Origin: Candidatus Saccharimonadota bacterium
Lineage (GTDB): Bacteria; Patescibacteriota; Microgenomatia; UBA1406; GWC2-37-13
Length of the DNA stretch: 32,000 bases
Assembly: GCA_016700135.1 (NCBI GenBank)
Contig: CP065004.1
Coordinates: 420,001-452,000 of the forward strand
Direction of reading: 5' to 3'
Shown here: piece after piece, positions 658 through 16,893 of the stretch
Layout: every line of letters starts with the position of its first letter
Numbering within the stretch: the stretch's first letter is position 1
Program-made: the position numbers and the translations under genes
The notes under the pieces: model-generated
What the model was told of the DNA's origin: nothing
The model's input: the letters and a program-made list of their open reading frames with translations, nothing else
Databases searched by the model: none

Positions 658-1938
658 ATGCGGGATCTTAAAACGACTACAATCGAAACACTTACTAGGC
701 TGCAAGACATAGACATCATTGAGAGAATAGATAATTATTCCGAGCGTTTCTATGATGAGCCAAGGCACTTTTACTTTGGGACTGTGTTATCTTCTGATTA
801 TGAAAAAATTCTGAGGAAGGATTACTTTTATCATTCCGAACAGTCAATCGGAGTGGGAATATCTTTTGAATCACCCTATCATGCACTTTTAAAATCAATA
901 ATGGAAGCGGTTGAGCGTTTTTCTCAAAGATCCGTCCCTACTGATCGGATACGGTACCGAACTCTATCTGTCTCCGAACAAAAGGCTTCAATTTTTTTCC
1001 AATCTGAAGACTTAAACTTTAAACTCAAGCCGTTACAATTCGGCTTTGTGGAAGGAATGGATATGATTACAGGACAACCTGCGGAGGTCCCTGCACAATA
1101 CGTATACCTGGAGTCGTACCATAAACTGACAAATCATACTGAAACACTTTTTACCCCGGATATTTCCACCGGTACTGCGGCCGGTTTTGATGAAGAAAAG
1201 GTCCTCATGACCGGTATTTGTGAGATTGTAGAACGGGATGCTCTCATGTCACTTTACCTCAACTCGGTACCTTTGCATCCGATAGATACGCGAAGTTTAC
1301 CGTTTCAAAAGATAAAAAGGATAATAAATCTCTGCAGAAGATATCTCCTGACGCCGTATATTTTCATCATACAGACCGATTTACAGATTCCTGTCGCTAT
1401 GACAATACTGGTAGACAAGACGGGGTACGGAGCCGCTGTTTCAGTGGGTGGGGGATGCTCACCCGAGATTGAAAGTGCTATTATTCACAGTATTGAAGAG
1501 TCGCTGGCATTCCGATTTCTCATAAAACGGAAAATGAATGAGCTACGTACGACCGAATTCAATATAAAGCAAAGCGAAATTATCGACAATACATATATGC
1601 AAATGTACTGGAGCGCTTTGGATAAGATTAATGAATTATCGTTCTGGATTGATCAAGATCCTCTTCCCTATCAACATCCCGATAATCCGATACAAAAGCT
1701 CTCCGATTTTGTCTCTTTGTGTAAGAAAAGAAAGATTCCTCTGTATAATGTAAATATCACTCCAAAGCCTTTGCAAGATGCAGGAATAGTGGTGCGAAGA
1801 GCTGTTATGCCTACGCTTCAGCCATTTTATGATGATCGGACTAAACCATTTATTTATAAAAAGAGGATAGAGACGGTATCAAAAAAATTTAATAAACACA
1901 CCTATACCTTAAATCCCATTCCCCATCCGATACCATGA
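658..1938 (+). CDS. YcaO-type cyclodehydratase (azoline-forming class)
   Basis: 426 aa. YcaO hallmark blocks GVGISFESPYHALLKSIMEAVERFS and STGTAAGFDEEKVLMTGICEIVERDA. The C-terminus ...NPIPHPIP matches the PxPxP motif described for azoline-forming YcaOs. The stop overlaps the next start (ATGA). Confidence 0.85.
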   Translation: MRDLKTTTIETLTRLQDIDIIERIDNYSERFYDEPRHFYFGTVLSSDYEKILRKDYFYHSEQSIGVGISFESPYHALLKSIMEAVERFSQRSVPTDRIRYRTLSVSEQKASIFFQSEDLNFKLKPLQFGFVEGMDMITGQPAEVPAQYVYLESYHKLTNHTETLFTPDISTGTAAGFDEEKVLMTGICEIVERDALMSLYLNSVPLHPIDTRSLPFQKIKRIINLCRRYLLTPYIFIIQTDLQIPVAMTILVDKTGYGAAVSVGGGCSPEIESAIIHSIEESLAFRFLIKRKMNELRTTEFNIKQSEIIDNTYMQMYWSALDKINELSFWIDQDPLPYQHPDNPIQKLSDFVSLCKKRKIPLYNVNITPKPLQDAGIVVRRAVMPTLQPFYDDRTKPFIYKKRIETVSKKFNKHTYTLNPIPHPIP

Positions 1939-2690
1939 AAAAAATTGATATAAAAGAGCTCACTCAGACAAGAAGTCATGCGTACCAAAGATTTCATAAG
2001 AAAACGATTCTTTCGTCCATTCCTCAATTTGAGTTTATGCCTGATGAACTGCCTGAAGCAGCTACGAAAACCTACTATAAGTCGTATCCGCGATTCCCGG
2101 AGATCAAACTTCCGACGCCGGACATGAAGCTGGGAAAACTGAGCGAATCTTTTGAGCAAAGAACTTCTTCCCGAACCTTTTCCAACAAACCGGTTTCAAT
2201 GAAGCAGTTGAGCACACTTCTCCATTTCTCTGCCGGAGAACATAATAAAAATAAACGATTTTACCCTTCCGGCGGGGCAAGATATGGCTTAGAGACGTAT
2301 CTCATTTCAACAAATACTTCTCTTGAAAACGGTGTGTATCATTACTATGTTCCCGGACATTCTCTCGAAAAACTCCTTTCGATAGATACCGTAGATTTTC
2401 ACAAAGCATTTACCCCTTACAATCAAACATGGGCTAAGAATATGGGCTTCATGATTGTGATGACAGCCGTTATCGATAGAATATTCATCAAATACGGTGA
2501 GAGAAGCTATCGATTTGCGCATATCGAAGCCGGCCATATGGGGCAGAATATGTATCTGATCTCCAATCAAATCAGTCTGAATTGCTGCGGCGCAGCCGGC
2601 ATCGTTGATACATACTTTGAAAAAGTGCTGGATATCAACCTGGAAAAGGAGCCCATAATCTACACGGTGATTTTTGGCAGTATCGGTTGA
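1935..2690 (+). CDS. SagB-type (nitroreductase-fold, FMN) azoline dehydrogenase
   Basis: 251 aa. Blocks RTSSRTFSNKPVSMKQLSTLLHFSAG and RFYPSGGARYGLETYLI are typical of SagB/McbC-type dehydrogenases. Translationally coupled to the YcaO gene. Confidence 0.8.
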   Translation: MKKIDIKELTQTRSHAYQRFHKKTILSSIPQFEFMPDELPEAATKTYYKSYPRFPEIKLPTPDMKLGKLSESFEQRTSSRTFSNKPVSMKQLSTLLHFSAGEHNKNKRFYPSGGARYGLETYLISTNTSLENGVYHYYVPGHSLEKLLSIDTVDFHKAFTPYNQTWAKNMGFMIVMTAVIDRIFIKYGERSYRFAHIEAGHMGQNMYLISNQISLNCCGAAGIVDTYFEKVLDINLEKEPIIYTVIFGSIG

Positions 2691-2727
2691 TAAGTAAAGC
2701 CTAAACTGATAATGTATAACTATATCT

Positions 2728-3099
2728 ATGAAACTTCTCAAGTACATCATCATTCTTCTTTTTGTCGTGGTACTGGCCGAAGCATTTTATTTGTTCGTGA
2801 TCAAAGGCTTTCAGTTTGGTCCTAAGAAACAGAACACTGCACAAACAGCAATCACAAGGTCTCCTACAGCAACTCCGTCCGAACCGTCAGAGATTGAGAT
2901 TGATGAAAATCGGCTGGAAAGTATTGACCAATTTTATTACGACATTAACCCCAATATGGCCCTTGATCCTAAAGTGATTTACAGTCACATCTTTTATAAA
3001 AAAAGGTGTTACCCAGAAATCGGTCATACAAAATACTCATCAGGGAAGGATCTCTCAAATCGATCGTACCCCACGCAAAGCTTTTTACGGGTATTATGA
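2728..3099 (+). CDS. Membrane-anchored protein TM1, N-terminal part (frame broken at the A7 run 2998-3004)
   Basis: N-terminal TM helix (LLKYIIILLFVVVLAEAFYLFVI) followed by a P/S/T-rich linker (RSPTATPSEPSE). After the A-run the listed frame turns into Cys/His/Tyr-rich text and stops, while the adjacent frame stays open (next feature). Confidence 0.55.
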   Translation: MKLLKYIIILLFVVVLAEAFYLFVIKGFQFGPKKQNTAQTAITRSPTATPSEPSEIEIDENRLESIDQFYYDINPNMALDPKVIYSHIFYKKRCYPEIGHTKYSSGKDLSNRSYPTQSFLRVL

Positions 3100-3382
3100 T
3101 TCTGTCCTTACAATCAGACTGGTCAATTCGGATAATCCGAATATTGGAATCACCCTCAACTTCAGTGAAGAGGATCTGAAAAGGCTAAATGTTTTCATCG
3201 ACCTTGATGAGGAAATTCAAACTGCAAGTACGGACATCCTTAAGGTAGGAGACACGATTGTTGTTGAGGATACTATTGATGCTACCGTCTCTATTCCGAA
3301 TGAGGCTGCAGGACAGGATGGTTTCTTGACCAAATCTTGGGGATTTAATAGAATTAAGACAGTCATAACCAAAATAAACTAA
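3002..3382 (+). CDS. C-terminal continuation of TM1 in the adjacent frame (no start codon of its own)
   Basis: Own translation of the frame starting at 3002: KGVTQKSVIQNTHQGRISQIDRTPRKAFYGYYDSVLTIRLVNSDNPNIGITLNFSEEDLKRLNVFIDLDEEIQTASTDILKVGDTIVVEDTIDATVSIPNEAAGQDGFLTKSWGFNRIKTVITKIN*. About 127 open codons contain no Met. Removing one A from 2998-3004 joins it to ...VIYSHIFYKK. It loosely resembles the C-terminal half of the 12838-13329 protein. Confidence 0.5.
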   Translation, partial: KGVTQKSVIQNTHQGRISQIDRTPRKAFYGYYDSVLTIRLVNSDNPNIGITLNFSEEDLKRLNVFIDLDEEIQTASTDILKVGDTIVVEDTIDATVSIPNEAAGQDGFLTKSWGFNRIKTVITKIN

Positions 3383-3402
3383 TATCATTCATAACGATTT
3401 AT

Positions 3403-3960
3403 ATGCGAACAAAAATTCATAATTATTCGAAGCCGAAAATCACTTCAAAAAAAATCAAGAGTAATTTTTTTTACAGTAAAAGAATGTATGACGGTGAGGA
3501 TCTTCTTGCCGGTATGATGGATGTTAGGATTCTTGCACGGTCCGGCTCTTGTAGCTGTTTCCCTGATTATACGAAAGTACTCCTTCCCGGCAACAATACG
3601 AAATCGATAAGAGATATTCGAGAAGGAGACACGGTGACTTCATACAATCTTGATGAGAATAGATTGACTGAGAGCAAAGTCATGGAGCAAATTATTCATC
3701 TTGATGCAAAAGTACAGTACTTTATCATCAACGGGAATATCAAGACAACCGCAGAACATCCGTTCTGGGTAAACGGAGAAAGATGGACAAGAGCCCACGA
3801 GATAAAGGTAGGAGATTGGCTGCTTACACCGACAGGTGAAAAAGTGGAAATTTCCGATATCGAGTCTTATTCCGCAGTAGAGACAGTATACAATCTTGAG
3901 CTGGAAGGAGAAGAACACAACTATTTTGCAGAAAATGTACTGGTACATAACCAACGCTAA
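3403..3960 (+). CDS. 51-aa leader-like N-terminal peptide fused to a complete Hint (intein-fold) autoprocessing domain
   Basis: 185 aa. Hint block A is C52-FPDYTKVLLPG...IRDIREGDTV, block B is TAEHPFWV, and the terminal block is VYNLELEGEEHNYFAENVLVHN followed only by QR-stop. The N-terminal 51 aa contain Y8-SKPKI and end in SGSCS directly before Cys52 (codon 3556-3558). Confidence 0.8.
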   Translation: MRTKIHNYSKPKITSKKIKSNFFYSKRMYDGEDLLAGMMDVRILARSGSCSCFPDYTKVLLPGNNTKSIRDIREGDTVTSYNLDENRLTESKVMEQIIHLDAKVQYFIINGNIKTTAEHPFWVNGERWTRAHEIKVGDWLLTPTGEKVEISDIESYSAVETVYNLELEGEEHNYFAENVLVHNQR

Positions 3961-4785
3961 TGTAAGATGTCTCCGTTTTTGAAAAATGATATAACCTTTT
4001 CCTCGTCCTTGGGGAAATCAAGGTAATAAAAGTGATTAAACTCCGCTACAAACTTCAGAAATATTTCCATTTTGTCTTTTACCTGCACACCGTCATAAGT
4101 AAAATCACCTAAAAATAAATTCAGTATCTGCTTATTGTCTTCCAGTTTTGTGACTTTGACATTCGCTCGATTTTCTCAAAAAGAAGATTTTCCTGAGAGG
4201 ATAGCTTTCCGAATGCTTAGTTAGCCACCAATTCCTTTCCCATAACGGATTTTGGAAGCAATGGAAGGTATTCCCAATCTTTAATCAGGACAAATCATCA
4301 GCAAAACGGTGGAACTTTTTCCGTAGGAGTGTACTGATTGTAGTCTTCCCCGCCCCGGATTTTCCTAAAAAAAGATATGCTCTTCCTTCGTGAATAATGC
4401 TTGATGCATGCTGAAAAAATCCGGTATCTTTTATGAGAATACTCAGAATTTCCGTAATAATATAATGAAATTGAGACGTGCTTATGGAATAATAAGTTCG
4501 GATACGATTCGGAGATTTTTGCTCATAGAGATTGATAAAGTGAAATTTGCTTTGAATACCGGGAATGACACTCATGATATTGCTTTCCCGAAACTCAATC
4601 GTATAATCAACCTTTTTGGGCTTTTCCATAGAGACAAAGTCGCGAAAAAGCATCATTATCTCTCGCTGCAATTTGTCGCGAAGAAACACCGTAAAACGGG
4701 GCTTGATCATAACGACTTTAATTGAAAAGCCGATAATATTCAGATAAAAAGTACTCATAGATCCTTGTATAATAATCAGACCCAT
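3957..4785 (-). pseudogene. HPr-kinase-like P-loop kinase paralogue, inactivated (in-frame TGA plus one frameshift)
   Basis: The ORF 4285-4785 ends ...HASSIIHEGRAYLFLGKSGAGKTTISTLLRKKFHRFADDLS-TGA (4285-4287). The same frame continues as LKIGNTFHCFQNPLWERN...YPLRKIFFLRKSSEC, collinear with the 11615 paralogue (ADD..AFQLPLEKK..PIRALFYLSQS). A 1-nt frame change near 4158 then gives KVTKLEDNKQILNLFL...FLKFVAEFNHFYYLDFPKDEEKVISFF...-TAG (3957-3959). Confidence 0.65.
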
Positions 4786-4806
4786 TATAGCCTAATCATA
4801 ATCCGT

Positions 4807-7044
4807 ATGTCAGAGATTCATCCCATCATTCAAACCATTGAGAACAACGATGAGGCTTATATACTGTGGAAAGATCACAACATCAAAAATGCAATTGTTT
4901 TGCATATAGACGCACATTTAGATTACAGAAACGATCGTGCCGGACTTCATATCGGGAATTATCTAAAGCATGCAGTTAAAGAACATCTTGCAAAAACGAT
5001 CTACTGGATAGTGCCGGGAAGCGGCAAACAGTTTACAAGCAAGCGGCAAGCGATCAAACAAAAACTGCGTTCTGCAGGGATTCACGAAGAAATAGTACAA
5101 GCAAAATCAGGACTAACGACACTTATTGACCAAACTCGCTTGATCGTATGCCCCTTAGGACTACTACCGAAGACTATCGAAGAACCATATGTCATCGATA
5201 TTGATCTCGATTTTATGTTTTTTTCTTCCTGTCTTACGGCCGATCGGGTACGTAATATTGGCAAAAGATCGCCGTGGATCTCTACTGAGTATTTTGCAAA
5301 GACAATAAAACCGTTGGTAAAAAGTGCCGCATTGACTACTCTTTGCTACTCGACAACCGGAGGCTGGACTCCTATGAGATATCGCCATTTCGGAGATCAG
5401 ATTTTACATATTTTGGGAACTCAAAAGGACAGTATTCATCAAAGAATTATCGCTGGAAATTTTTTTACTTCGTTCTGGAAATATTTCAAAGATAATACAT
5501 TGCAGCAGGCGAAAAAATATTATCAGTCTGCTTTAGCACTGAATCCGACATACGCAAGTTTTTTCATGACTGACGGTCCTCTGTTCATATTGAAAGGTGA
5601 CTTGAGAAGTGCAAGAACAGAATTTTCCCGACTGCAGCAAATTGATCCTCAAAATATTTATGCAATCTTTGGCCTGGGCCTCGTGGAGCTACTTTCAGGC
5701 AATTTGACAAAAGCGAAGGTCTTGATGGAAAAAGCACGATCAATAACGAGTAATAAGGAAATTGTACTCTTTTTAATATATATACAGTCACAACTTGGTG
5801 AGCACGAGATGGTTCAAGAACTTCTGACGGAGTACAAAAAGAGTACGTTCCCTGAAAAACCGCTACCCACAAATGTTCTTAACGGGATACTCCATGAGAT
5901 CGCGGAAAAACTTAAGACAGAGCATCAGATAAAAAATATCGGACAGATGTATCTGTATCCGAATCCTCACGCGGTCACAGTATGGAAAAGGCTGGCGGAA
6001 TACTCCTCCAATAACATCGGAAACTGGACTGAAGAACCTGAAAGCCTTCGGCATACAGCAGCCGCAATCGAACTTGATCTTATCGAAAAAATGGTTGATT
6101 TATATTTCGAAAACCCTGCCGCATATGGAGGATATATGACATCCGGTGCGACGGAAGGAAATATTTTTTCTGCATGGCTGGGACGTAAATATCTTGAAAA
6201 GAAACCCGTGAAATCTCCTATCATACTTCTTGCCAATGACCTCGCCCATTACTCTATCTTCAAGGCAGCAGACGTAACCGGTCTAACCGTTCAATCCATC
6301 CCGGTCAATACCAAAGATTGGAACACGGATACCGACAAACTCATAAAAACAGTCGTCAAATTAAAGAAAAAAGGTATTTCAAAATTTCTTATACCTCTCA
6401 CTCTCGGATACACAGTCGGAGGGACAAATGATGACGTTCAAACAATTGTTCAGGAACTACGCCGGTTGAAAGAGAAAATGGGTATTGAGTATTTCCTTTG
6501 GATCGATGCCGCACTTTCCGGCCTTACCATACCGTTTCTTAAGAATGACTATAGATCCTATTTCTCTCAGGAAATCCATACGGTTGTCGTTGACTTTCAT
6601 AAGGCTCTCGGCGTCCCGATGCCGGCAGGATTTGTTCTCTACCGAAAAGAATTGGCGGGACCGATAAAAACGACTATCCCTTACCTGTCAACCGGTGACA
6701 GCACTCTCCTCGGTTCACGAAACGGAATTGCTCCAATAGCAGCCTGGATGAGTATCCATCAGTATGGATTTACCAAACTTTCCCGTATCCTTAAGAAAGA
6801 AATACATCGCAAGAATAGGATAATAAGCGAAGTGCGAAGAAAATTTCCGGATGCAAGAGTAATAACTGACAGCGATTCACTCCATGCCGCCATATTAGTA
6901 CATGAAGCGCTTCCTCAATCATTCTGTACACGATATGGGCTGCATCTCCGAAAATATACGATAAACAACAAAGAATACTTGTTGTATCCCTTGTTTTTCA
7001 TGCCCCGATGGGATCAGGAATATGCAAGCGGTCCGCGGGAATGA
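4807..7044 (+). CDS. Three-domain fusion: UPF0489-like N-domain, TPR repeats, and a group-II PLP-dependent decarboxylase-like C-domain
   Basis: N-domain: AYILWKDHNIKNAIVLHIDAHLDY and YVIDIDLDFMFFSS (UPF0489-like HxDxHxD and DIDLDFF blocks). TPR: AKKYYQSALALNPTYA and FSRLQQIDPQNIYAIFGLG. C-domain: GGYMTSGATEGNIFSAW, AHYSIFKAADVTGL, IDAALSGLTIPF and VVVDFHKALGVPMPAGFVLYRK (PLP-lysine D-x-HK block). The track starts at TTG 4765; I prefer ATG 4807 (MSEIHPII). TGTATAAT at 4766-4773 is a possible extended -10. Confidence 0.7.
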   Translation: MSEIHPIIQTIENNDEAYILWKDHNIKNAIVLHIDAHLDYRNDRAGLHIGNYLKHAVKEHLAKTIYWIVPGSGKQFTSKRQAIKQKLRSAGIHEEIVQAKSGLTTLIDQTRLIVCPLGLLPKTIEEPYVIDIDLDFMFFSSCLTADRVRNIGKRSPWISTEYFAKTIKPLVKSAALTTLCYSTTGGWTPMRYRHFGDQILHILGTQKDSIHQRIIAGNFFTSFWKYFKDNTLQQAKKYYQSALALNPTYASFFMTDGPLFILKGDLRSARTEFSRLQQIDPQNIYAIFGLGLVELLSGNLTKAKVLMEKARSITSNKEIVLFLIYIQSQLGEHEMVQELLTEYKKSTFPEKPLPTNVLNGILHEIAEKLKTEHQIKNIGQMYLYPNPHAVTVWKRLAEYSSNNIGNWTEEPESLRHTAAAIELDLIEKMVDLYFENPAAYGGYMTSGATEGNIFSAWLGRKYLEKKPVKSPIILLANDLAHYSIFKAADVTGLTVQSIPVNTKDWNTDTDKLIKTVVKLKKKGISKFLIPLTLGYTVGGTNDDVQTIVQELRRLKEKMGIEYFLWIDAALSGLTIPFLKNDYRSYFSQEIHTVVVDFHKALGVPMPAGFVLYRKELAGPIKTTIPYLSTGDSTLLGSRNGIAPIAAWMSIHQYGFTKLSRILKKEIHRKNRIISEVRRKFPDARVITDSDSLHAAILVHEALPQSFCTRYGLHLRKYTINNKEYLLYPLFFMPRWDQEYASGPRE

Positions 7045-7895
7045 AATTTGTATTCAGTCGGGTCAGAGATACCCGCCCGGAGAAAACTTTGTTTTCTATA
7101 CTGACAGAAATAACATCTGCCGCAGTGAATTTTGTAGTTTATCGGACTGATACAGCTAAACATTTTTTCGAGCGGATATCCTTTCTCAGTAGCCCAACGT
7201 ATCAAAATATCTTTGTCCCAAAAAAATCCGAGTTCTTTCTCTAAAGCAAGGGATGTATACTGCCAGTTCATGTCACCGGTCAAAATGCAAAGATTTTGCA
7301 TCACGCTTCGCATCGCCGTCAGCGTCTCATACTTCAAACTTTCTCCGTCTGACGTGACGAATGCAGAGAAGATCGTGCGGATTGATACATTCTTTTCTTC
7401 CTGAAGAAAAAGCGCATACTCGGCAGCATTCAGGGCTAAAAGACCGCTGTAAAGAGGTAAGCCTTTCCTCTGATTTGTGTCACTACTTACAACCTCCTGA
7501 GAATGCTCGGTGATCTTCCATCTGATCTCTTTCGGAGGCATAGGAACATCCAAGTACTGGACTGTCTGAAAAAGCTTAGCATATTTTTTCTGGAAAAACT
7601 GAGAGAAGAACCGTACTGCATTTTCTTCCCGTTGGATGCGCTTATGTCCTCTCCGGAAAAAAACAGGGTAGACCTGCATCTGATACTCTTCAAGAAGCAT
7701 TCCCCAAAGTATAGTAGAGTCCAAACCACCGGATACGGTGAGGATTACCGATTCTCCTTTTTGAGGCATGCGGAAAACATATCCCCGCTTCTCCTTCAAA
7801 AAAGACTCAATGCATTTCAAGGCTGAAAGGTCTTCAAGCTTTCGCTCTATTAACATTCTCTGTAGTTGTTTACTTGTGAGTTTCGGTAATTTCAT
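7014..7895 (-). CDS. QueC-like PP-loop ATP pyrophosphatase (7-cyano-7-deazaguanine-synthase family fold)
   Basis: 293 aa. PP-loop VILTVSGGLDSTILW, and a C-terminal zinc cluster SCISPINYKIHCGRCYFCQYRKQSFLRAGISDP matching the QueC pattern C..CG.C..C..R...F...G..DP. The start overlaps the upstream stop (ATGA at 7895). Its 3' end overlaps the convergent 4807-7044 gene by 31 nt. Confidence 0.7.
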   Translation of the reverse strand: MKLPKLTSKQLQRMLIERKLEDLSALKCIESFLKEKRGYVFRMPQKGESVILTVSGGLDSTILWGMLLEEYQMQVYPVFFRRGHKRIQREENAVRFFSQFFQKKYAKLFQTVQYLDVPMPPKEIRWKITEHSQEVVSSDTNQRKGLPLYSGLLALNAAEYALFLQEEKNVSIRTIFSAFVTSDGESLKYETLTAMRSVMQNLCILTGDMNWQYTSLALEKELGFFWDKDILIRWATEKGYPLEKMFSCISPINYKIHCGRCYFCQYRKQSFLRAGISDPTEYKFHSRGPLAYS

Positions 7896-8767
7896 CAGTA
7901 ACGAATCATAAAATTGCTTTTCCTTCCCCGTTTAAATTTTTTTATATAGGGAGAATATGTTGAGACTTTGATTTCTTTCTTGTTCGGAAAGAACTGAAAA
8001 ATCCGTAAAAACCCGTTTCCGCCTTTTTCGAGATCCTGAAAATTCTGTACGGCTTGATGAACTGCTTCTCCGCACGTATTAGCACTCATTATATAATTCT
8101 CTCCCGTTTGTGTATGAAAATGACCGGAGAGAACTAAACGGATATTGCAGTTTGTCTTGATAAGTTTATGCCAGATATCCTCACCGGCATTACCGAGACC
8201 GCCATAATGAGATATATCGCTCCGGTACGGCAGATCGTCGTAGACAAATGCATGTGTCGCAATTACGGCCATTGTATCACGGTGCCGTTTCAAGATGTTG
8301 TCAGCCCATTGCAGAATCTTATCTGACGGATCAATCTGCAGATGAATAAAAAGGAGAGAGAATGTGTCAACAACAATATGCTGATAACTATTCTGATTCC
8401 CGAGGTATCCTCCTCCGTACCATGATTGTTTTCGGAATTTCTTTATCGGGAAAAAATGATTATAAGTCTGGAAAGAAACTTGTTCATCGTCATAAAAATC
8501 AGCATCATGATTCCCGGGCGCCAAAGCATAAGGAATAACTCCATCAAGCTTGGACAGTTCTGCCGCCATTTTGTGCCATTGTGTCTGATCCGCTGAATTA
8601 TCATCAACGATATCCCCCAAATGCGAAACGAATCGGATGTTTAGTTTCTCCTTTTCCTTCAATATCCAATCCAGTTGTGCTGAAAAAATTTCAGGATATT
8701 TCGACGCATAGAGTTGTGTATCTGACAAAACAATAACGGAATAAAAGGGATTATGCCGAAAAAACAT
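7895..8767 (-). CDS. Calcineurin-like metallophosphoesterase
   Basis: 290 aa with the canonical motif series VLSDTQ, HLGDIVDD, APGNHD, ATHAF and LSGHFH. Confidence 0.8.
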   Translation of the reverse strand: MFFRHNPFYSVIVLSDTQLYASKYPEIFSAQLDWILKEKEKLNIRFVSHLGDIVDDNSADQTQWHKMAAELSKLDGVIPYALAPGNHDADFYDDEQVSFQTYNHFFPIKKFRKQSWYGGGYLGNQNSYQHIVVDTFSLLFIHLQIDPSDKILQWADNILKRHRDTMAVIATHAFVYDDLPYRSDISHYGGLGNAGEDIWHKLIKTNCNIRLVLSGHFHTQTGENYIMSANTCGEAVHQAVQNFQDLEKGGNGFLRIFQFFPNKKEIKVSTYSPYIKKFKRGRKSNFMIRY

Positions 8768-8772
8768 ATGAT

Positions 8773-9759
8773 TTATTGTATCCTGACACCCATCACATAG
8801 GCGGGATCTATCTTTGCGGAAATAATAAACTCATCTCCCGGTGAAACAGATAACTTTTTGTTTGCAGAGGCCTTCAAGACACCCTGCGGAGGAATATTCA
8901 GATTCTGTGCCAGATTCTGAACATGGTTTCTACTGAGTAAATCAATCTTTAACTTAGCACTTCCCAATGTTCCGAAATGCCCATCTTTATTGAATATTCC
9001 TGTATCTTTGGTATCCCCCACTGCCACTTCAACACGAGAAAAGGTGTACTCATGATGCACTACGATATGAAGGCTTTTATCCTTCACGTAATAATTATCT
9101 CCTTTTTCTGACAACAGGAATGACGGTTTTTCGCTAGAGTTAAGGAGAACAGCGTGCGGATACTGACCTTTAAATGAAATACCTCCTCCAAACTGCTCCC
9201 GAGATTTATGCTTCAGATCTGCAAAAGCAGTACCGGGAGAAAAAATTAAGGTTTGTTTAGGAGTCGTATCCTCCGGAAAAAAATCCATATCAAGAGAGTG
9301 TATAACAGAAGTTGCTCCCACTCCTTTTCCGCTATTTATAATGCATATGGCTTGCGGAAGCAGCTTCCCCGAGTAATATGGCCAGTCATGAAGCGCTTCT
9401 ACCTCCGGGTTATCCTCTTCTCGATATTCGGCAAGTTTATCTCCGAACGGTACAGCTGCAAACTGCTTGGTTCCCCAGAACGTCCAAGAATCTGTTTTTT
9501 TATCAAATACAAGAACACGTGAATACGCAGGTTCAGAATCCCAGTTCTTTTGTGCAGGAAGACTGGCTTTTCGATGTGCGAGCGTAATCAAATCAAGAAC
9601 TTTTGTATGAAACATTTCAGGAATAGACACGACTACGGCTTCACCCTGATGGAGGACAGTATTCAGTACACTTGAAAAAGAACATTCCTTTATAACGCTT
9701 ACTGAATGTACTGACTGAATAATCGTCGGATCGCCGGGAATAATCGGCAGCTTATGCAT
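8773..9759 (-). CDS. Hypothetical protein (328 aa) inside the PqqD-to-QueC-like operon; no recognised domain
   Basis: Long ORF with protein-like composition. It overlaps the upstream PqqD-like gene by 8 nt and lies 5 nt from the downstream gene. I recognise no motif. Confidence 0.6.
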   Translation of the reverse strand: MHKLPIIPGDPTIIQSVHSVSVIKECSFSSVLNTVLHQGEAVVVSIPEMFHTKVLDLITLAHRKASLPAQKNWDSEPAYSRVLVFDKKTDSWTFWGTKQFAAVPFGDKLAEYREEDNPEVEALHDWPYYSGKLLPQAICIINSGKGVGATSVIHSLDMDFFPEDTTPKQTLIFSPGTAFADLKHKSREQFGGGISFKGQYPHAVLLNSSEKPSFLLSEKGDNYYVKDKSLHIVVHHEYTFSRVEVAVGDTKDTGIFNKDGHFGTLGSAKLKIDLLSRNHVQNLAQNLNIPPQGVLKASANKKLSVSPGDEFIISAKIDPAYVMGVRIQ

Positions 9760-10045
9760 GAGAAGATTTTGTGGGTTTCTTTTCGATTAGTAATTTTTTC
9801 TTCATAAGTTTGTCTACAAACTCTTTCGTATCTTTCAGGGCTTTCTCCTGATTAATTTCATACTCATCGACCAGATATTTTACAAGATCACTAAAAGTCG
9901 CACCTTTTTTTAGCTGCTTGAAAAGATCAGCAGCCGTTTCGTTGAGGGTATGCAAAATTGAGGTTTCACCGTCGAAGATAAATACCTCCTCATTCACCTG
10001 CTGGACAACGAGGTCTTTTTTGAGTTTATATTTTGATTTCTTCAT
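9752..10045 (-). CDS. PqqD-family protein (RiPP recognition element-like), copy 2
   Basis: 97 aa. VVQQVNEEVFIFDGETSILHTLNETAADLFKQLKKGATFSDLVKYLVDEYEINQEKALKDTKEFVDKLMKKKLL fits the PqqD pattern (beta strands, then LN.t....w, then a 3-helix bundle). Confidence 0.75.
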   Translation of the reverse strand: MKKSKYKLKKDLVVQQVNEEVFIFDGETSILHTLNETAADLFKQLKKGATFSDLVKYLVDEYEINQEKALKDTKEFVDKLMKKKLLIEKKPTKSSHA

Positions 10046-10311
10046 ACGCTCTCAACTATATGTAACTTGACCAGTGACTGGATAAATGTCTTAACCTCCT
10101 TTTTGGCGTTGTTATTTGATATCTCGTACTCCTTCGTTAATGAAGCTATTATTTGCACCAATGTTTTTTTTTCTTTCAGGGACTGAAAAATGATAGAACC
10201 CGTTTCGTTAAACGTATAGAGTTTTGACTCTCCAGCATCAAAAATAATTATTCCTTCCGGAACCTTCTGAACAATAGCTCCCTTTCTGATTTCATATTTC
10301 TTTTCAGCCAT
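10042..10311 (-). CDS. PqqD-family protein (RiPP recognition element-like), copy 1
   Basis: 89 aa. IVQKVPEGIIIFDAGESKLYTFNETGSIIFQSLKEKKTLVQIIASLTKEYEISNNNAKKEVKTFIQSLVKLHIV. Overlaps copy 2 by 4 nt. Confidence 0.75.
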   Translation of the reverse strand: MAEKKYEIRKGAIVQKVPEGIIIFDAGESKLYTFNETGSIIFQSLKEKKTLVQIIASLTKEYEISNNNAKKEVKTFIQSLVKLHIVESV

Positions 10312-10318
10312 ATCGGGT

Positions 10319-10330
10319 ATAGTATACTAT
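10319..10330. promoter_or_regulatory. 12-bp perfect palindrome ATAGTATACTAT in the 26-bp divergent intergenic gap
   Basis: Read directly. It sits between the minus-strand start at 10311 and the plus-strand start at 10338. It contains TATACT/TATAGT -10-like hexamers facing both ways. Confidence 0.3.
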
Positions 10331-10337
10331 TTTTCAC

Positions 10338-11618
10338 ATGTCTGCAAAAAATAATGTAACAATTGATCTAAGAACTACCGATCACATTAAGTCATTCGGC
10401 CACAGCATGTACCCGATTCTTCACAACGGAGATATTATTTATTACAAAAAAACTCCTTATCAAAAAATCAAACTGAATGACATAATCATCTCCCAAAAGA
10501 ACAACCTTTATGTCACCCATAGAGTTATATATAAAACTTCGGATTATATTATTACAAAGGGAGATAATAATTTAGAAATTGACGAGCCGCTCTTGCCTGA
10601 ATCAATCATCGGTGTTGTAAATAAAGTACAACGAGGCAAAGTAACGTTTATCCCTGAAACCTATTACCTCCTCCAGTCTTCAATATATTACCAACATATA
10701 CATTCCGTGATTAAGGAAATGGAGCGCCATACGATCTCCTATGTATTGCTAAAAGGACTCCCTCTGCATCTAAAATATCACCAGGAACACCCGCGAAAAG
10801 GTTTTTTTGATTTTGATATTCTTATTTCTCCCACAGATAGAGACGTACTTATGAAAATACTGAATGATCTCGGTTTTAAAAGACGATATGATTTCCTTTC
10901 ACCAACCCACGAAAGACTTATGAACAAATCTATCGAAGAAACATGTATGAAGAAATTTGAAGGATTTAATATCGCAGTTGATATCCATTATGAAGCTGTA
11001 TTTATGATGACTCAGATCGGAACACTCAACCCTCTATATCATCAGAGCTACATTGACGGATTCACAAAGGAACTTTTTAACAATACCGTCACTTTTCAGG
11101 AACACGATCTTAAATGTCAGTTGCTTACTGATGAGTATCTCTTCGTATATCTCTCTCTACATTTTTTTCATCATAATTTTAAAAGTCTTCATCGACTAAA
11201 CCTAATCGCAGCGCTAATTCAATCAATTCCACGAGCAAAGCGTCACGGATTCTGGAAATCTGTTTTTTCTATCATTCACAAGTATCGTCTGCAAGGATAT
11301 ATTTACGGAACATTTATAAGTTTAGAAAAATACCTTCCGGCAACAAGTATTCCACAATGGTTCTTGAATAAAATACGACCGGGCAAAGCTCAATGTAATT
11401 ATTTAAAAAACTACTTTCTCACAGAGCATATTTATGAAGAATACAACGCTACCCGCGCCGGGATCTTATTATTTACACATCTATATATTCTTTCATATAA
11501 TCCATGGTACAAAAAAATACTCGTTTTTTTACAACCTGCAGTCATTTTCATGATGGTATGGCTTGTATACTATTACGTTACAACAAGATGTAAAAAATTA
11601 CTCCGTACATTTCTATGA
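10338..11618 (+). CDS. Fusion of an S24/S26-type serine peptidase domain and an NTP_transf_5-type nucleotidyltransferase domain, with a C-terminal TM helix
   Basis: N-domain: SFGHSMYPILHNGDIIYY...VTHRVIY...ITKGDNN (signal-peptidase/LexA-like G-x-SM-x-P block). Middle: ISYVLLKGLPLHLKYHQEHPRKGFFDFDILISPTDRDVLMKILNDLGF, matching the 'uncharacterised nucleotidyltransferase' family seen in lasso and sacti clusters. C-terminal: ILVFLQPAVIFMMVWLVYYYV. Confidence 0.65.
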   Translation: MSAKNNVTIDLRTTDHIKSFGHSMYPILHNGDIIYYKKTPYQKIKLNDIIISQKNNLYVTHRVIYKTSDYIITKGDNNLEIDEPLLPESIIGVVNKVQRGKVTFIPETYYLLQSSIYYQHIHSVIKEMERHTISYVLLKGLPLHLKYHQEHPRKGFFDFDILISPTDRDVLMKILNDLGFKRRYDFLSPTHERLMNKSIEETCMKKFEGFNIAVDIHYEAVFMMTQIGTLNPLYHQSYIDGFTKELFNNTVTFQEHDLKCQLLTDEYLFVYLSLHFFHHNFKSLHRLNLIAALIQSIPRAKRHGFWKSVFSIIHKYRLQGYIYGTFISLEKYLPATSIPQWFLNKIRPGKAQCNYLKNYFLTEHIYEEYNATRAGILLFTHLYILSYNPWYKKILVFLQPAVIFMMVWLVYYYVTTRCKKLLRTFL

Positions 11619-12418
11619 AGAACTCCGTAATTATCCTGAATACTGCCGCTATATATATTGCTATCGATTTATCACGAATAGCTGATCCTGATATCTTAAA
11701 AGCGCTCTCGGATCAAATCTCTACGTTCTATAAGATGGAGATTGTTAGGAATTTTAAGAAGAAACCGGATTTCACCATTTACTACGTTGCTGATGAAGAA
11801 TACCGATTTGTAAAACAGCAAATAAGGAAAGGAACCAGTATTAACTACTTCTTGGAAACCTTTAGCATTGGAGAGGACTCGGCAAAAATCCACTATCATG
11901 TAAGTATTGCTCAATTCCAATTCTTCTTAAAATTAATCTTACAATCGATTCTCGGGTCCCGAAAGGGTTTCATACTTCACTCCTCCGGAATCACAGACGA
12001 TCAGCATGCATTTCTGTTTTTAGGTCCGAACGGGATCGGAAAATCTACCATCGTAGATAACCTTTCACAAAAATATCGTCCCTATGCAGACGATATGGTG
12101 ATTGTCAGGAAAATTGAACGGGAGTGGTACGCTTTTCAGCTTCCTTTGGAAAAAAAACGTTATAAAAAGATCCCAGATTCAAAAATGCCGATTCGGGCAT
12201 TATTCTATCTGTCTCAAAGCAAAAAAACCAAATTACAGAAAATCTCTTCTACAGAGGCTAGTAAAAAGCTTCTTGACCAACTCATAAGAAACGGTCTCAC
12301 AAAAAAAAATATAACATATCTTTTTGAATTTTTAGCTTTTGTAGATCACTACATTCTTGAAACTCCGAAGAAGACTGCTATAAAAACTATTGAAGGATTA
12401 GTCAGCTCTTATCAGTAA
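11615..12418 (+). CDS. HPr-kinase-like P-loop kinase (RiPP precursor Ser-kinase type)
   Basis: 267 aa. GFILHSSGITDDQHAFLFLGPNGIGKSTIVDNL...YADDMVIV resembles the HprK C-terminal catalytic domain fold found in lasso-peptide kinases. 4-nt overlap with the upstream gene. Confidence 0.7.
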   Translation: MKNSVIILNTAAIYIAIDLSRIADPDILKALSDQISTFYKMEIVRNFKKKPDFTIYYVADEEYRFVKQQIRKGTSINYFLETFSIGEDSAKIHYHVSIAQFQFFLKLILQSILGSRKGFILHSSGITDDQHAFLFLGPNGIGKSTIVDNLSQKYRPYADDMVIVRKIEREWYAFQLPLEKKRYKKIPDSKMPIRALFYLSQSKKTKLQKISSTEASKKLLDQLIRNGLTKKNITYLFEFLAFVDHYILETPKKTAIKTIEGLVSSYQ

Positions 12419-12833
12419 GACGTTTTTTTAAAGAATCAATCTCTTTCTGCTGATCTTGGACCGCCTGCACAAGAAGTGATATTACGCCGGCATAATCTAC
12501 CCTCAACAGGCCGGATGTTTCAACAACAGACTCCGGGAGAACATCCCGAACATTTTGGGCGATCAGCCCTGCCGACTCCTTTGAAGTCCCTTTCCATGTG
12601 TACGTAACCGGCTCCAACTTCATCACTCGTGAAATTGAGTTCTTGAGAGGCTTCACAGAAACCTTTAACGACTTATCCGAATAAATAATCGGCAGATACA
12701 GGCTGTTGCTTGCGGCATATACCTCATTCATAAGTAAACCCTCAAGTAACGTATCGTCGTGATACCTTGAGAACAGATTTAATTGTATTTCCTCGACAGA
12801 TACCGACGGTGGAATAAATTTCTTTTTTTGCAT
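12402..12833 (-). CDS. 52-aa leader-like N-terminal peptide fused to a Peptidase_S74 (intramolecular chaperone, self-cleaving) domain
   Basis: 143 aa. From S52: SDKSLKVSVKPLKNSISRVMKLEPVTYTWKGTSKESAGLIAQNVRDVLPESVVETSGLLRVDYAGVISLLVQAVQDQQKEIDSLKKRL. This matches the S-D-x-x-x-K start, the G.IAQ.V..v.PE.V block, the VDY block and the terminal coiled coil of the endosialidase/tail-fibre chaperone domain. Only 52 aa precede it. Confidence 0.75.
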   Translation of the reverse strand: MQKKKFIPPSVSVEEIQLNLFSRYHDDTLLEGLLMNEVYAASNSLYLPIIYSDKSLKVSVKPLKNSISRVMKLEPVTYTWKGTSKESAGLIAQNVRDVLPESVVETSGLLRVDYAGVISLLVQAVQDQQKEIDSLKKRLTDKS

Positions 12834-12837
12834 AGCT

Positions 12838-13329
12838 TTAAAGCAGTTCCAAACTGATAGAGCTCGCCGAATTACTTAGAATATTATAATCAAATATTAT
12901 TCGGATTACGGTACCCGCCGTGATCAACTCCTGCATCTTCTCATATGTCGCAGGCTGCTTTTCGTCCTCGGAAGTTAGAATAACAGTTTTATCGATGGTT
13001 GCCTGATCGAAGTAAAACGAAACCTCTTCCTTCACACCAACAACTTTCACGGTCAGTTCTGCTATCTGAGATGAATCATTCTTACTCAAACCCAGTACAG
13101 TCCCCCTGTACACAAGGGAAGCTGATGCGGATTCCAGACCGGCAGTTTCTGCGATATAGACAGCCTGCCTTCCTTTTTGTTCAGGCTTCGGTATAGGCGA
13201 TGCGGTACTGAGTTTGCTGCCTACAGTCCCTGAAGCATTTCCTTTTCTATATAGAATAATTCCTGCTTCCACTACAATCACAATCAATAACAGAACGATC
13301 ACAGCAGGTAAAAAATATATTTTTTTCAT
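12838..13329 (-). CDS. Membrane-anchored protein TM2 (architectural twin of the 2728-3382 protein)
   Basis: 163 aa. TM helix FLPAVIVLLLIVIVVEAGIILY, P/S-rich linker STASPIPKPEQK, then a small beta-rich domain. Its stop is 4 nt before the S74-fusion start. Confidence 0.6.
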   Translation of the reverse strand: MKKIYFLPAVIVLLLIVIVVEAGIILYRKGNASGTVGSKLSTASPIPKPEQKGRQAVYIAETAGLESASASLVYRGTVLGLSKNDSSQIAELTVKVVGVKEEVSFYFDQATIDKTVILTSEDEKQPATYEKMQELITAGTVIRIIFDYNILSNSASSISLELL

Positions 13330-13420
13330 AAAGCAATAAAGAAAATCTGTTTATCTATCTTTATCATGATACATTAAAATAATGCTTCCCGAAAATTAGA
13401 ATAGTTATATATATTAGTTA

Positions 13421-14875
13421 CTACTGATTTCTTACCGATTTTTCATAATAGCAGTCAAGATTGTTCGCATGACACCAAGCTGAAAACCAATCTCTATCTT
13501 CAAACTGCATTTCGGGATAAAGAATCGTATATTCCCGCAGATGCTTCTCAACATATGACCGTGCATCTTCTTCTGAGCGGACAAGCGACATTAATTCAAA
13601 CACCTTTACTACGTAGCCGGTATCCCGGGGGGCGCGATTTAGTGCTGATAGATAGTACTGCAATGCTTTTGAATTATTTCCTATTGACGAATTGAATCTT
13701 CCAAGAAATGACATATCAAAAGGGACATCTCTATAGAGATACGCATACTTGTTAATTAATATCTCCATTTGATTAAATTTCTGATTTCTATATAAATCCG
13801 CAATCTGATAACGATACCCCTTATCATTTATTGGATAGAGCCGTAACGCCAAAGAAGAATTCCCCCGCGCATTTACGTACGAAGATACGAATATTCCTAC
13901 ACCAAATAGAGCAACAAGGAAGGATACTGATTTCAATAGTATCGAACCATGAATAGATGCTTTTTCTTCGTATAAAAGAGCTCCGCAAATAAAAAAGAAT
14001 ACAAACAAAAATGCCATAAGGTGATAATAATTGAATTCAAAGAGGACAAACAATCCAATAAAAACTGAGCCGATTACATTATTAATAACTCGTTTCCTGC
14101 GCATTTGACGGATTACCTTACGAGTCACCACAAATATGATGAGTGCAAACGTCAGAAACGAAACGATCCCATGTTCAGCAGCGATATCGATAAATAAGTT
14201 ATGGCTTGTGCTGACGACATAATCAATGTTTTTAGAATAATAAAGACTGGCGTAGTAAAAATTCCCTCCACCATAGCCTGTTAAAGGGCGTTCTCGAATG
14301 GCTTGCAGTGCTGTCGTAATAAACCCTATTCTTCCGTTATCAAAATCTTTATAGTGAAAAGCTGTTTCGTCACGGATGACAACTGTACGAAGTTGAGAAA
14401 TAACCGGGATTTCTGTTTGGTCTGCAAACGGAATGAGAAGAAATAGGACTGTTACTAGCGCTACTAGCAGTGAAATTTTATAGTTTCTGATGCTCTTGAA
14501 GACAGCATTGTTCGTGAGATAATCGACCATAATAACTACCAACATCCCAAGATACGCTGACCGCAGATAGCTCAGCCACAACAGTATCGATAATAAAAAT
14601 ACTGATACGATAGATGCTGTCGTTCGCCTATGGCGCATATATACGAAGGAAATTATCAGCAATAAGAATACAAATACTCCTTGGGGATAATGTGTTAAAT
14701 CTACTACGCGATAGATAAGCTGATCATCATGAGTTGGTACTATATTAGAAAAGATAGGATGCTCCGTTAATAATAATCCGCTATACAACAAGCTGAGGAG
14801 TGAAGATACCACAATAAACGGGACTACGTATTTCTGTATTTGATTTGCATTGTTGTAAACATAGATAAATATCAA
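13421..14875 (-). CDS. O-antigen-ligase-like (Wzy_C) polytopic membrane protein with a C-terminal TPR-like tail; main part
   Basis: Many TM helices. Wzy_C signature STSHNLFIDIAAEHGIVSFL. C-terminal soluble part ALQYYLSALNRAPRDTGY is TPR-like. The listed start is a TTG inside the homopolymer-affected region. Confidence 0.7.
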   Translation of the reverse strand: MIFIYVYNNANQIQKYVVPFIVVSSLLSLLYSGLLLTEHPIFSNIVPTHDDQLIYRVVDLTHYPQGVFVFLLLIISFVYMRHRRTTASIVSVFLLSILLWLSYLRSAYLGMLVVIMVDYLTNNAVFKSIRNYKISLLVALVTVLFLLIPFADQTEIPVISQLRTVVIRDETAFHYKDFDNGRIGFITTALQAIRERPLTGYGGGNFYYASLYYSKNIDYVVSTSHNLFIDIAAEHGIVSFLTFALIIFVVTRKVIRQMRRKRVINNVIGSVFIGLFVLFEFNYYHLMAFLFVFFFICGALLYEEKASIHGSILLKSVSFLVALFGVGIFVSSYVNARGNSSLALRLYPINDKGYRYQIADLYRNQKFNQMEILINKYAYLYRDVPFDMSFLGRFNSSIGNNSKALQYYLSALNRAPRDTGYVVKVFELMSLVRSEEDARSYVEKHLREYTILYPEMQFEDRDWFSAWCHANNLDCYYEKSVRNQ

Positions 14876-15095: not shown

Positions 15096-15180
15096 AAATT
15101 GAGAAGATACAGGAGAAACAAAAAAAGATAAAACAAAATGACGCGAAGTTTTGTAATCATTGACTTAAAGTATACAGTGA

Positions 15181-16887: not shown

Positions 16888-16893
16888 GTTGAG

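Follow-up and report, generated by a model that had tools for sequence, protein, structure and literature searches.

Why would two proteins built on unrelated autoproteolytic folds begin with what looks like the same N-terminal peptide? The question is raised by a 32,000-nt stretch of contig CP065004.1 (positions 420,001 to 452,000 of the forward strand) from a Candidatus Saccharimonadota bacterium; the whole stretch is called the window below, and coordinates are window positions unless a locus handle precedes them. According to Pfam, NCBIfam and the list of open reading frames (ORFs), a cluster resembling those for peptides made on ribosomes and modified after translation (RiPPs) spans 658-14875. 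It encodes one protein ending in a Hint domain (3403-3960, + strand) and another ending in a Peptidase_S74 domain (12402-12833, - strand), two folds that an earlier note on this DNA had recognised and that Pfam confirms. The answer proposed here is that the two N-termini are paralogous RiPP leaders, that each precursor has a PqqD-type recognition protein and a ScmC/HprK-like protein of its own, that a single fusion of a signal-peptidase-I-like (SpI) domain to NTP_transf_5 is probably shared, and that the C-terminal domains remove themselves. Taken as a whole, we consider this reading to be probable.

The first 52 residues of the Hint protein are encoded at 3403-3558 (MRTKIHNYSKPKITSKKIKSNFFYSKRMYDGEDLLAGMMDVRILARSGSCS|C) and those of the S74 protein at 12833-12678 of the minus strand (MQKKKFIPPSVSVEEIQLNLFSRYHDDTLLEGLLMNEVYAASNSLYLPIIY|S), as had been reported at the outset. 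The stretch in which the resemblance was noticed, an ungapped alignment of Hint residues 8-23 with S74 residues 6-21, is present but modest by itself, with four identities and a BLOSUM62 score of 26 that 5 of 400 shuffled sequences reach. Over the full 51-residue N-termini, gapped local alignment scores 41, compared with 19.4 +/- 3.8 in 5000 shuffles (p ~4e-4; semi-global p ~2e-4). The 274 real 51-residue segments taken from the window's other long ORFs all stay below this score (maxima 37 and 33), which excludes a Lys-rich composition driven by AT content as the cause. When profiles of the two families (10 Hint and 6 S74 homologues) are compared with hhalign, the score is 30.2 (P = 2.6e-6, probability 88.7%), about 10 standard deviations above 300 column shuffles of the same profiles (8.7 +/- 2.0, maximum 18).

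A MAFFT alignment of both families consistently places [Y/F]xxPx[I/V]...I-[KQ]-x-N-[FL]-F...S...D...LLxG[LM][LM]...[VI][YL]-A-x-S in register, and the columns conserved within each family are the same ones: [Y/F], P, [I/V], I, N, F, S, the D..LLxG[LM][LM] patch to which the earlier note had drawn attention, and [VI][YL]-A-x-S. The Ser-rich stretch that had also been described just before the cleavage site holds for the Hint protein; in the S74 protein the hydrophobic LYLPIIY comes between the corresponding AASNS and the cleavage Ser, seven residues further on. A resemblance due to chance or composition, explained by the Lys-rich N-termini of an AT-rich genome and not by any common function, could appeal to the K-rich run that opens both proteins and to the first stretch noticed, with its 4 of 16 identities and a score that shuffles occasionally match. 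This explanation is already refuted by the 5000 shuffles, the 274 real segments, the profile comparison and the joint profile, whose 91 representatives form a coherent family and share conserved gene neighbours, and we leave it next to no probability.

This family was recovered with a leader-only profile, built from the N-termini alone, in an exhaustive search of 1.84 billion protein cluster representatives (E <= 1e-3, 50% clustering). The search returned 92 representatives, 91 of which look genuine and one of which is a low-complexity false positive; a word-indexed search with the same profile returned only two stand-alone peptides, P0027 (62 aa, Candidatus Woesebacteria) and P0028. Classified by domain hidden Markov models and NCBIfam, 66 are stand-alone peptides of 39-80 aa, 21 are fused to Hint, two to S74 and one to a CFI-box-CTERM domain, and the remaining genuine member (P0104) is a stand-alone peptide with an over-long called start. 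The family consensus reads KKK-Y(96%)-x-K-P(99%)-x-[ILV](98%)-K-x-K-K-[IVL]-K-x-N-F-F(91%)-x-S-x-R-x-x-D-S...L-L...V-[YLF]-A-Q-S-G, with further columns at N 76%, R 75%, D 70% and A 60%, and the stand-alone peptides mostly continue into hypervariable tails rich in Cys, Gly, Ser and Thr. To judge from these sequences, this is the classical leader-plus-core anatomy of RiPP precursors. The make-up of the family, mostly stand-alone precursors, together with the ScmC and PqqD neighbours described below, therefore identifies the shared peptide as a RiPP leader, as the earlier note had suspected. No Pfam or NCBIfam model matches it, and scanning a genome collection with the Hint family mostly brings up unrelated Hint proteins that lack the leader.

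The taxonomic range is drawn from a few source names, and the named members belong to the candidate phyla radiation (CPR), namely Roizmanbacteria and Woesebacteria; the names attached to proteins identical to those of the window assign it to a Candidatus Roizmanbacteria genome. Two records (L018 and L019) are titled 'uncultured Gammaproteobacteria', whereas NCBI lists the Hint protein of the window itself (P0001) and a 58%-identical homologue (P0008) under Candidatus Roizmanbacteria; the titles were probably mislabelled when the metagenome-assembled genomes were submitted.

The genes around the leader are conserved as well. A ScmC-like gene (the name is taken from NCBIfam TIGR04249, a SynChlorMet cassette protein) lies beside the precursor in every locus examined, most loci also contain PqqD, and a small single-pass membrane protein precedes almost every precursor; where present, the other neighbours are YcaO/SagB, a radical S-adenosylmethionine (SAM) enzyme or the SpI/NTP_transf_5 fusion. 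Stand-alone precursors are found in the orders PqqD-ScmC-YcaO-SagB-membrane protein-precursor (L010) and SagB-hydrolase-precursor-ScmC (L012). Hint precursors occur in YcaO-SagB-membrane protein-precursor-ScmC with one PqqD (L001), in the same arrangement with the SpI/NTP_transf_5 fusion added (L017), and on a truncated contig (L008). In a distant lineage, the S74 precursor P0035 is part of a module without YcaO (membrane protein-precursor-ScmC-SpI/NTP_transf_5-PqqD, L013), and the same module in L015 contains a stand-alone precursor with an S74-type core, YAxTxxLPYIS. The CFI-box precursor (L034) is accompanied by YcaO, SagB, ScmC and PqqD. Finally, L003 repeats the double cluster of the window, with the Hint gene cut at the contig end and a third precursor that brings the number to three.

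In all the loci in which both were counted (the window, L001, L003, L008, L010, L012, L013, L015, L017 and L034), there are as many ScmC genes as precursors, 2:2 or 3:3 where precursors are several and 1:1 elsewhere. Each ScmC gene has its precursor nearby, in most loci as its immediate neighbour, and usually converges with the precursor 3' end or overlaps it. These equal counts and this closeness suggest that ScmC is a one-to-one, precursor-specific partner. The SpI/NTP_transf_5 fusion, which is also present in L013, L015 and L017, remains single-copy even where there are two or three precursors.

The third type of precursor, unannotated and missing from the window, has the same leader and a Cys-rich tail, ...LLAQSGCGYTIYQCMNPNCTGVCI (L003:2471-2665 and L005:36-251, both on the minus strand). 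It adjoins a PapB-like radical SAM/SPASM enzyme and its own, third ScmC gene.

In the window, the Hint module opens with a YcaO cyclodehydratase (658-1938, +; PF02624 118.5 bits, TIGR03604 144 bits, under the cutoff of 219) and a SagB-type dehydrogenase (1935-2690, +; PF00881 74.1 bits, TIGR03605 118.7 bits against a cutoff of 78.4), which would be its azole-forming pair. Directly 5' of the Hint precursor lies the gene for a single-pass membrane protein (2728-3382, +), frameshifted near 3000: one frame holds its N-terminal part and a second frame its C-terminal part (3002-3382), which has its match in the 214-aa homologue that L001 carries intact. On the other side, the precursor adjoins a broken ScmC/HprK-like gene (ScmC#1; 3961-4785, -) with at least two frameshifts, of which a 166-aa N-terminal ORF is 91% identical to the intact 251-aa orthologue of L003 and the rest is readable in two other frames.

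Both recognition proteins that had been noticed in the cluster are genuine matches to PF05402: PqqD-A (9752-10045, -; 52.4 bits) and PqqD-B (10042-10311, -; 50.9 bits), whose genes are adjacent and overlap by four bases. Next to them is the SpI/NTP_transf_5 fusion (10338-11618, +; TIGR02228 56.4 bits against a cutoff of 51.85, PF14907 63 bits against 31.2), with the Ser23, His61 and Asp76 motifs of the peptidase visible in its sequence and a membrane segment at its C-terminus. The second ScmC/HprK-like gene (ScmC#2; 11615-12418, +) is convergent with the S74 precursor and overlaps its 3' end; it has an intact P-loop (GPNGIGKST), scores 43 bits with TIGR04249 (cutoff 125) and weakly with HprK_rel_A, and its relatives match PF27840 ScmC and, weakly, hpr-ser. 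A second single-pass membrane protein (12838-13329, -) is encoded 5' of the S74 precursor, a position kept in L003, L005, L013 and L015. All module copies of this membrane protein show weak sequence similarity to one another; BLASTP between the two of the window is not significant.

The Hint precursor is composed of a leader, a short predicted core and the Hint domain. Its leader (residues 1-44, 3403..3534, +), scoring 85.6 bits against the family leader profile, contains Y8-S-K-P11-K-I13 followed by KKIKSNFFYS, D30GEDLLAGMM and V41RIL. In the AlphaFold model of the protein, residues 1-49 are of low confidence (predicted local distance difference test, pLDDT, below 50 over residues 16-49), and the leader is thus modelled as disordered when alone, as would be expected of a leader that is unstructured until bound. 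The junction and probable core (A45-R-S47-G-S-C-S51, 3535..3555, +) begin with the A-x-S that is found across the family as A-[QAR]-S before the hypervariable Cys/Gly/Ser region, and continue with heterocyclisable Ser and Cys that abut Cys1 of the Hint domain. With the boundary between leader and core placed by prediction, the core would comprise 4-7 residues here, compared with up to ~35 in relatives, whose cores are much richer in Cys, Ser and Thr than the SGSCS of the window.

The Hint domain itself (residues 52-185 plus stop, 3556..3960, +) is of the bacterial intein-like (BIL) type. It is recognised from residue ~50 as PT-HINT (52.6 bits) and Intein_splicing (48.7 bits), and it is modelled with pLDDT above 90 over residues 50-185. 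Its best Foldseek matches are BIL2 6Y75 (E = 1.5e-11, target-normalised template-modelling (TM) score 0.82), BIL 2LWY (target-normalised TM score 0.85) and mini-inteins. Cys52 (Cys1), T116-x-x-H119 and H182-N183 are invariant in 11 homologues down to 40% identity; among all 21 Hint-fused representatives, Cys1 follows the core directly and the terminal His-Asn is mostly kept. Unlike in a canonical splicing intein, His-Asn is followed here by Gln-Arg-stop, without a +1 nucleophile; in relatives that position is mostly taken by Gly, Lys, Ala, Gln or Pro, with tails of 2-10 residues. Hint domains turn the preceding peptide bond into a thioester, which is then hydrolysed or captured, for instance by cholesterol in Hedgehog proteins or by lysine in the conjugation of BUBL ubiquitin-like domains.

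The S74 precursor has the same architecture. Its leader (residues 1-39, 12717..12833, -) scores 84.3 bits with the family profile, and most of its columns are invariant in six homologues down to 57% identity; it reads F6-I-P-P9-S-V11, then VEEIQLNLFS, D26DTLLEGLLM and E37VY. The junction and probable core (A40-A-S42-N-S-L-Y-L-P-I-I-Y51, 12681..12716, -) are invariant among homologues, with a predicted core of 9-12 residues, no Cys and few residues that YcaO could heterocyclise; the similar core YAxTxxLPYIS is found without any S74 domain in the stand-alone peptides P0073 and P0091. The intramolecular-chaperone domain (residues 52-143 plus stop, 12402..12680, -) combines an S52-D53...K57 dyad with a C-terminal coiled coil. 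Its PF13884 match (49.6 bits, cutoff 22) covers residues 52-103 and puts model position 1 at S52; S52, D53 and K57 are invariant among the homologues, and the profile aligns to the phage tail-fibre chains 6F45 and 8JOV at 'sSDrRlKkdI'. Known S74 domains fold and trimerise a large upstream fibre and then cut themselves off.

A third fusion (L034:8001-8471; P0119/P0048) joins the same leader to a CFI-box-CTERM domain (NF041770, 52.8 bits) that has a Cys as its first residue, immediately behind the core, and may represent a third self-processing type of follower.

The closest parallel to these modules is provided by the clusters for linear polyphosphorylated peptides (LPPs) of Bacillota (Popov et al., Nat Commun 2026, PMC13381572). 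LPP leaders read YxxPxVLxHQxIxFET, their precursors are 35-200 aa long and their clusters lie in polysaccharide loci; the core starts A-Q-S, with Ser3 polyphosphorylated (PMC13381572). The S74 module of the window appears to comprise the same kit (PqqD-B, SpI-like, NTP_transf_5 and, as a candidate counterpart of the HprK-like kinase, the ScmC/HprK-like protein), with the SpI/NTP_transf_5 fusion as the analogue of LppS plus LppN. Further similarities are a leader that starts YxxPx[V/I], precursors that can be long with variable C-termini, a polysaccharide gene setting, and a co-resident second pathway with a similar leader, distinguished by Tyr versus Trp there and by Tyr versus Phe here. The differences are just as clear: the organisms are CPR bacteria, whereas LPPs have been described as restricted to Bacillota (PMC13381572); peptidase and NTP transferase are fused; and neither the long ORFs of the window nor the related loci listed here include an ABC transporter or MsbA-like exporter. 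In addition, the leader is ~20 residues longer and lacks HQxIxFET, so that A-[QAR]-S comes ~37 residues past the Tyr and not 16, many family members add YcaO/SagB or a radical SAM enzyme, and the C-termini of some precursors are Hint, S74 or CFI-box domains, none of them mentioned in PMC13381572.

B1 proteins, the stand-alone recognition proteins of lasso-peptide and LPP clusters, bind [Y/W]xxPx[L/V/I] leaders, as established by structures and mutagenesis (PMC13381572), and they are the best solved relatives of both PqqDs of the window: TfuB1 (also FusB1; 6JX3, E = 4.6e-6) for PqqD-A, and PbaB1 (9X90), TfuB1 and LppB (9X8Z) for PqqD-B, with TbiB1 (5V1U/5V1V) also among the matches. The best NCBIfam matches of both, lasso PqqD chaperones, fall below cutoff. 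The aromatic-x-x-Pro-x-aliphatic motif is present in both leaders, at residues 8-13 of the Hint protein and 6-11 of the S74 protein. In contrast to lasso systems, the cluster has no lasso cyclase, no B2 transglutaminase-type peptidase and no Thr at leader position -2, and its products are presumably linear or azole-containing.

The pairing of YcaO with a SagB-type FMN (flavin mononucleotide) dehydrogenase beside a core rich in Cys, Ser and Gly recalls the linear azol(in)e-containing peptides and thiazole/oxazole-modified microcins (TOMMs) of the SagBCD and McbBCD type. Unlike those, each precursor has a ScmC/HprK-like partner, the core is fused directly to Hint, and no E1-like (C protein) or Ocin-ThiF-like partner is found among the annotated genes of the window, L001, L010 and L017. 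In its absence, a stand-alone B1-type PqqD would supply leader binding.

As for the followers, the Hint domain shares its fold, Cys1, TxxH and terminal His-Asn without +1 nucleophile with BIL and Hedgehog domains (2LWY, Tetrahymena BUBL BIL2 6Y75, 1AT0), but the segment upstream is a RiPP leader and core of ~51 residues together and not a folded protein or toxin module. Likewise, the S74 domain resembles the chaperones of phage tail spikes and fibres and of MYRF (Pfam match above threshold, SDxxxK dyad, C-terminal coiled coil), although what precedes it is a 51-residue leader plus core, encoded in a RiPP-type cluster and not in a phage. The literature searched yielded nothing relevant on Hint, intein or S74 combined with RiPP, YcaO or cyclodehydratase, nor anything on this system under CPR or Patescibacteria with YcaO. 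What is known, then, is recognition of the LPP/lasso type and TOMM chemistry; what is new is the occurrence in CPR bacteria, the LPP-YcaO and LPP-radical SAM hybrids, and the putatively self-cleaving Hint, S74 and CFI-box followers.

According to these comparisons, a working model can be postulated in which each precursor consists of a leader of ~40-45 residues, a short core and a self-cutting C-terminal domain, and in which the two side-by-side modules would have arisen by duplication of a set formed by membrane protein, precursor, ScmC-like protein and PqqD. PqqD would take [Y/F]xxPx[I/V] as an added beta-strand, while the rest of the leader (I-K-x-N-F-F-x-S, D-x-x-L-L-x-G and [VI][YLF]-A-x-S) presumably positions the peptide for the ScmC/HprK-like and SpI-like enzymes and, in the Hint precursor, for YcaO/SagB. 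The ScmC/HprK-like enzyme may then act on a conserved Ser, presumably by phosphorylation, the candidates being the Ser after N-F-F and the Ser of A-x-S. In the Hint precursor, YcaO and SagB would turn Ser and Cys of S47-S51 into azolines or azoles. Leader removal would fall to the SpI-like domain, with the cut at A-x-S or beside it; the -3/-1 rule for type I signal peptidases speaks for a cut behind the Ser, and the analogy with LPPs, whose core is AQS, for one before the Ala.

In the last step, the C-terminal domain would remove itself and free the C-terminus of the core without a separate protease. An N-to-S acyl shift at Cys52 of the Hint domain would yield a thioester at Ser51, for which, as there is no +1 nucleophile, hydrolysis and capture would be the only outcomes. 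The S74 protein would have its Tyr51-Ser52 bond cut hydrolytically by the Ser52/Lys57 dyad, presumably once it has trimerised. The two pathways would probably be kept apart by the change from Tyr to Phe and from KK to EE in the S74 leader, matched by changes in PqqD-B.

The earlier note had suggested that the common leader is recognised by shared machinery. In its full form, with both PqqDs acting together or interchangeably and all enzymes processing both precursors, this is unlikely, even though the leaders are homologous, the two PqqD genes overlap, one SpI/NTP_transf_5 gene serves the whole cluster and the actinobacterial B1 protein FusB1 keeps a relaxed precursor specificity (PMC13381572). 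Each module is found elsewhere with a single PqqD and its own ScmC (Hint alone in L001 and L017, S74 alone in L013, the S74-type core in L015). PqqD-A and PqqD-B are only ~36% identical, and each has its own orthologue group in L003 and L007, at 60-73% identity, with 63-70% for PqqD-A and 60-61% for PqqD-B; ScmC#1 and ScmC#2 are 25% identical, and ScmC#2 is 52-54% identical to the ScmC beside the S74 precursors of those two loci. Moreover, the S74 leaders of double clusters are outliers of the family, with Phe where 96% have Tyr and V-E-E-I-Q for K-K-I-K. Such F/EE leaders occur only in double clusters, while Tyr and a basic stretch are retained in the lone S74 module (P0035, KYIKPKLFIKKIR) and in the stand-alone peptides with an S74-type core. 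In parallel, the strand region reads PEGIxIFDAGESKLYTF in PqqD-B and its orthologues, where PqqD-A and the PqqDs of L001, L010 and L013 show a generic E-[ED]-x-x-IFDGExS-L. The loss of the docking Tyr and the charge reversal, together with the change in the PqqD-B strand, point to discrimination rather than sharing, and they probably represent a co-divergence, read from the alignments, that insulates the two pathways. A comparable solution has been described in LPP producers, in which Tyr versus Trp in the leader lets paralogous recognition proteins separate the LPP from a co-resident paeninodin lasso pathway (PMC13381572). The scarcity of heterocyclisable residues in the S74 core also speaks against its processing by YcaO. 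Identity did not sort the single PqqDs of L001 and L010 into group A or B, both being matched at 32-43%; synteny was used in its place, and it would make PqqD-A the partner of the Hint/YcaO module and PqqD-B that of the S74 module. The only plausible shared component is the SpI/NTP_transf_5 gene, probably as leader peptidase and secondary modifier. With PqqD and ScmC paralogous and module-specific and the SpI gene single, the original interpretation is thus supported in part.

Two further explanations question the role of the leader or of the followers. That the N-terminal peptide common to both serves chiefly in export or sorting, as a signal cut at the membrane by the signal-peptidase-like enzyme, would agree with the basic N-terminal run, with an A-x-S that fits the -3/-1 rule, with the membrane segment of the peptidase fusion, with the single-pass membrane protein encoded beside the precursor, with the lack of an ABC exporter among the long ORFs of the window and with envelope genes (Wzy_C, Bac_transf, glycosyltransferase) around the clusters. 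We regard it as improbable, because the segment between the basic run and A-x-S is charged and amphipathic, with no hydrophobic core, PqqD and ScmC accompany the leader in nearly every locus, and the homologous LPP peptidase needs the recognition protein to present the leader before it cleaves, even in a cell-free assay (PMC13381572); export and recognition are not, in any case, mutually exclusive roles. Less probable still, to the point of being barely tenable, is that the fusions are accidents with inactive domains, unproductive precursors in a decaying module. The frameshifts in ScmC#1 and in the adjoining membrane-protein gene lend it some colour, and the Hint module may indeed be decaying here, if they are not local assembly indel errors. 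The Hint precursor ORF is nonetheless intact, and the genes that are broken here have intact orthologues in L003; Hint fusions account for 21 of the 92 representatives (50% clustering), with Cys1 always directly after the core, the His-Asn mostly kept and catalytic columns invariant at 40% identity; and the S74 fusion recurs with an intact module in a distant lineage (P0035, L013).

Several observations weigh against the proposal of dedicated readers and self-removing followers on a common RiPP leader. The scores of the ScmC family lie under the curated cutoffs; PqqD is missing from L008 and L012, both truncated contigs, and SpI/NTP_transf_5 from the 8 kb around the precursor in L034. The S74 leader carries a Phe, while the documented binding determinant is Tyr or Trp, and the co-divergence is seen in one lineage of double clusters and therefore counts as a single evolutionary event. 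The leader profile detects no lasso or LPP leader chains in the PDB, only chance matches to activin receptor kinase, so that relatedness to those leaders rests on the short motif and on the homology of the recognition proteins. To these must be added the frameshifts beside the Hint precursor and the poor AlphaFold model of the S74 monomer (pLDDT 38.7), which is uninformative.

A more far-reaching version of the proposal holds that Hint and S74, and possibly the CFI-box, were independently recruited as self-removing followers on one leader family, and that the Hint thioester is captured and not simply hydrolysed. This is doubtful, though capture or cyclisation would be in line with the use that BIL folds make of the thioester, namely conjugation. 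Capture might come from the N-terminus that the peptide exposes once its leader is gone, which would close a small azole-containing macrocycle, or from an amine or some other nucleophile. The pyridoxal phosphate (PLP) decarboxylase encoded in the cluster was considered as a general source of a capturing amine and dropped, its gene being absent from the Hint loci L008 and L017. If the scenario were true, it would constitute, within a RiPP pathway, a natural counterpart of expressed protein ligation and intein-mediated cyclisation as well as of Hedgehog and BUBL Hint chemistry.

The wider proposal of dedicated readers and self-removing followers would have consequences of its own. It extends LPP-type machinery (recognition protein, SpI-like peptidase, HprK-like enzyme and NTP transferase) beyond Bacillota, joined to YcaO/SagB or radical SAM enzymes, and provides a second, independent case of how paralogous recognition proteins separate co-resident pathways with similar leaders. 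Self-cleaving follower domains, if they act as postulated, would be a new design principle for RiPPs, and the Hint version would necessarily pass through a peptide thioester, an enabling intermediate for chemistry and one of biotechnological interest. The leader family, uncurated and with 91 representatives at 50% clustering, could be put to direct use in mining the genomes of CPR bacteria, from which hardly any natural products are known.

Between ScmC#1 and PqqD-A lies a block of four genes, which code for a 759-aa arginase-like/TPR/PLP-decarboxylase fusion (4765-7044, +), a QueC-like PP-loop protein (7014-7895, -), a metallophosphoesterase (7895-8767, -) and an unknown 328-aa protein (8773-9759, -), whose gene adjoins PqqD-A as in L001. 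This block (4765-7044 on the plus strand and 7014-9759 on the minus strand) is kept with the Hint module in its closest relatives, L001 and L003, the fusion being represented by two genes in L001; the more distantly related Hint loci, L008 and L017, lack it.

The cluster ends with a Wzy_C gene (13421-14875, -), which belongs to a flanking trio of Wzy_C, an unknown protein of ~540-580 aa and a second Wzy_C (window 13421-18126, L003:4725-9393 and L005:1272-6028). Bac_transf and glycosyltransferase genes flank the related clusters in L008, L013, L015, L017 and L034, and these polysaccharide-type surroundings recall the polysaccharide loci reported for LPP clusters. Outside the cluster, the window also encodes a PIN-domain protein, a pentapeptide-repeat protein, two adjacent N6_N4 DNA methylases and a protein with weak AbiEi/HTH matches (18489-19982, 22188-22961, 25733-27176 and 29269-30933).

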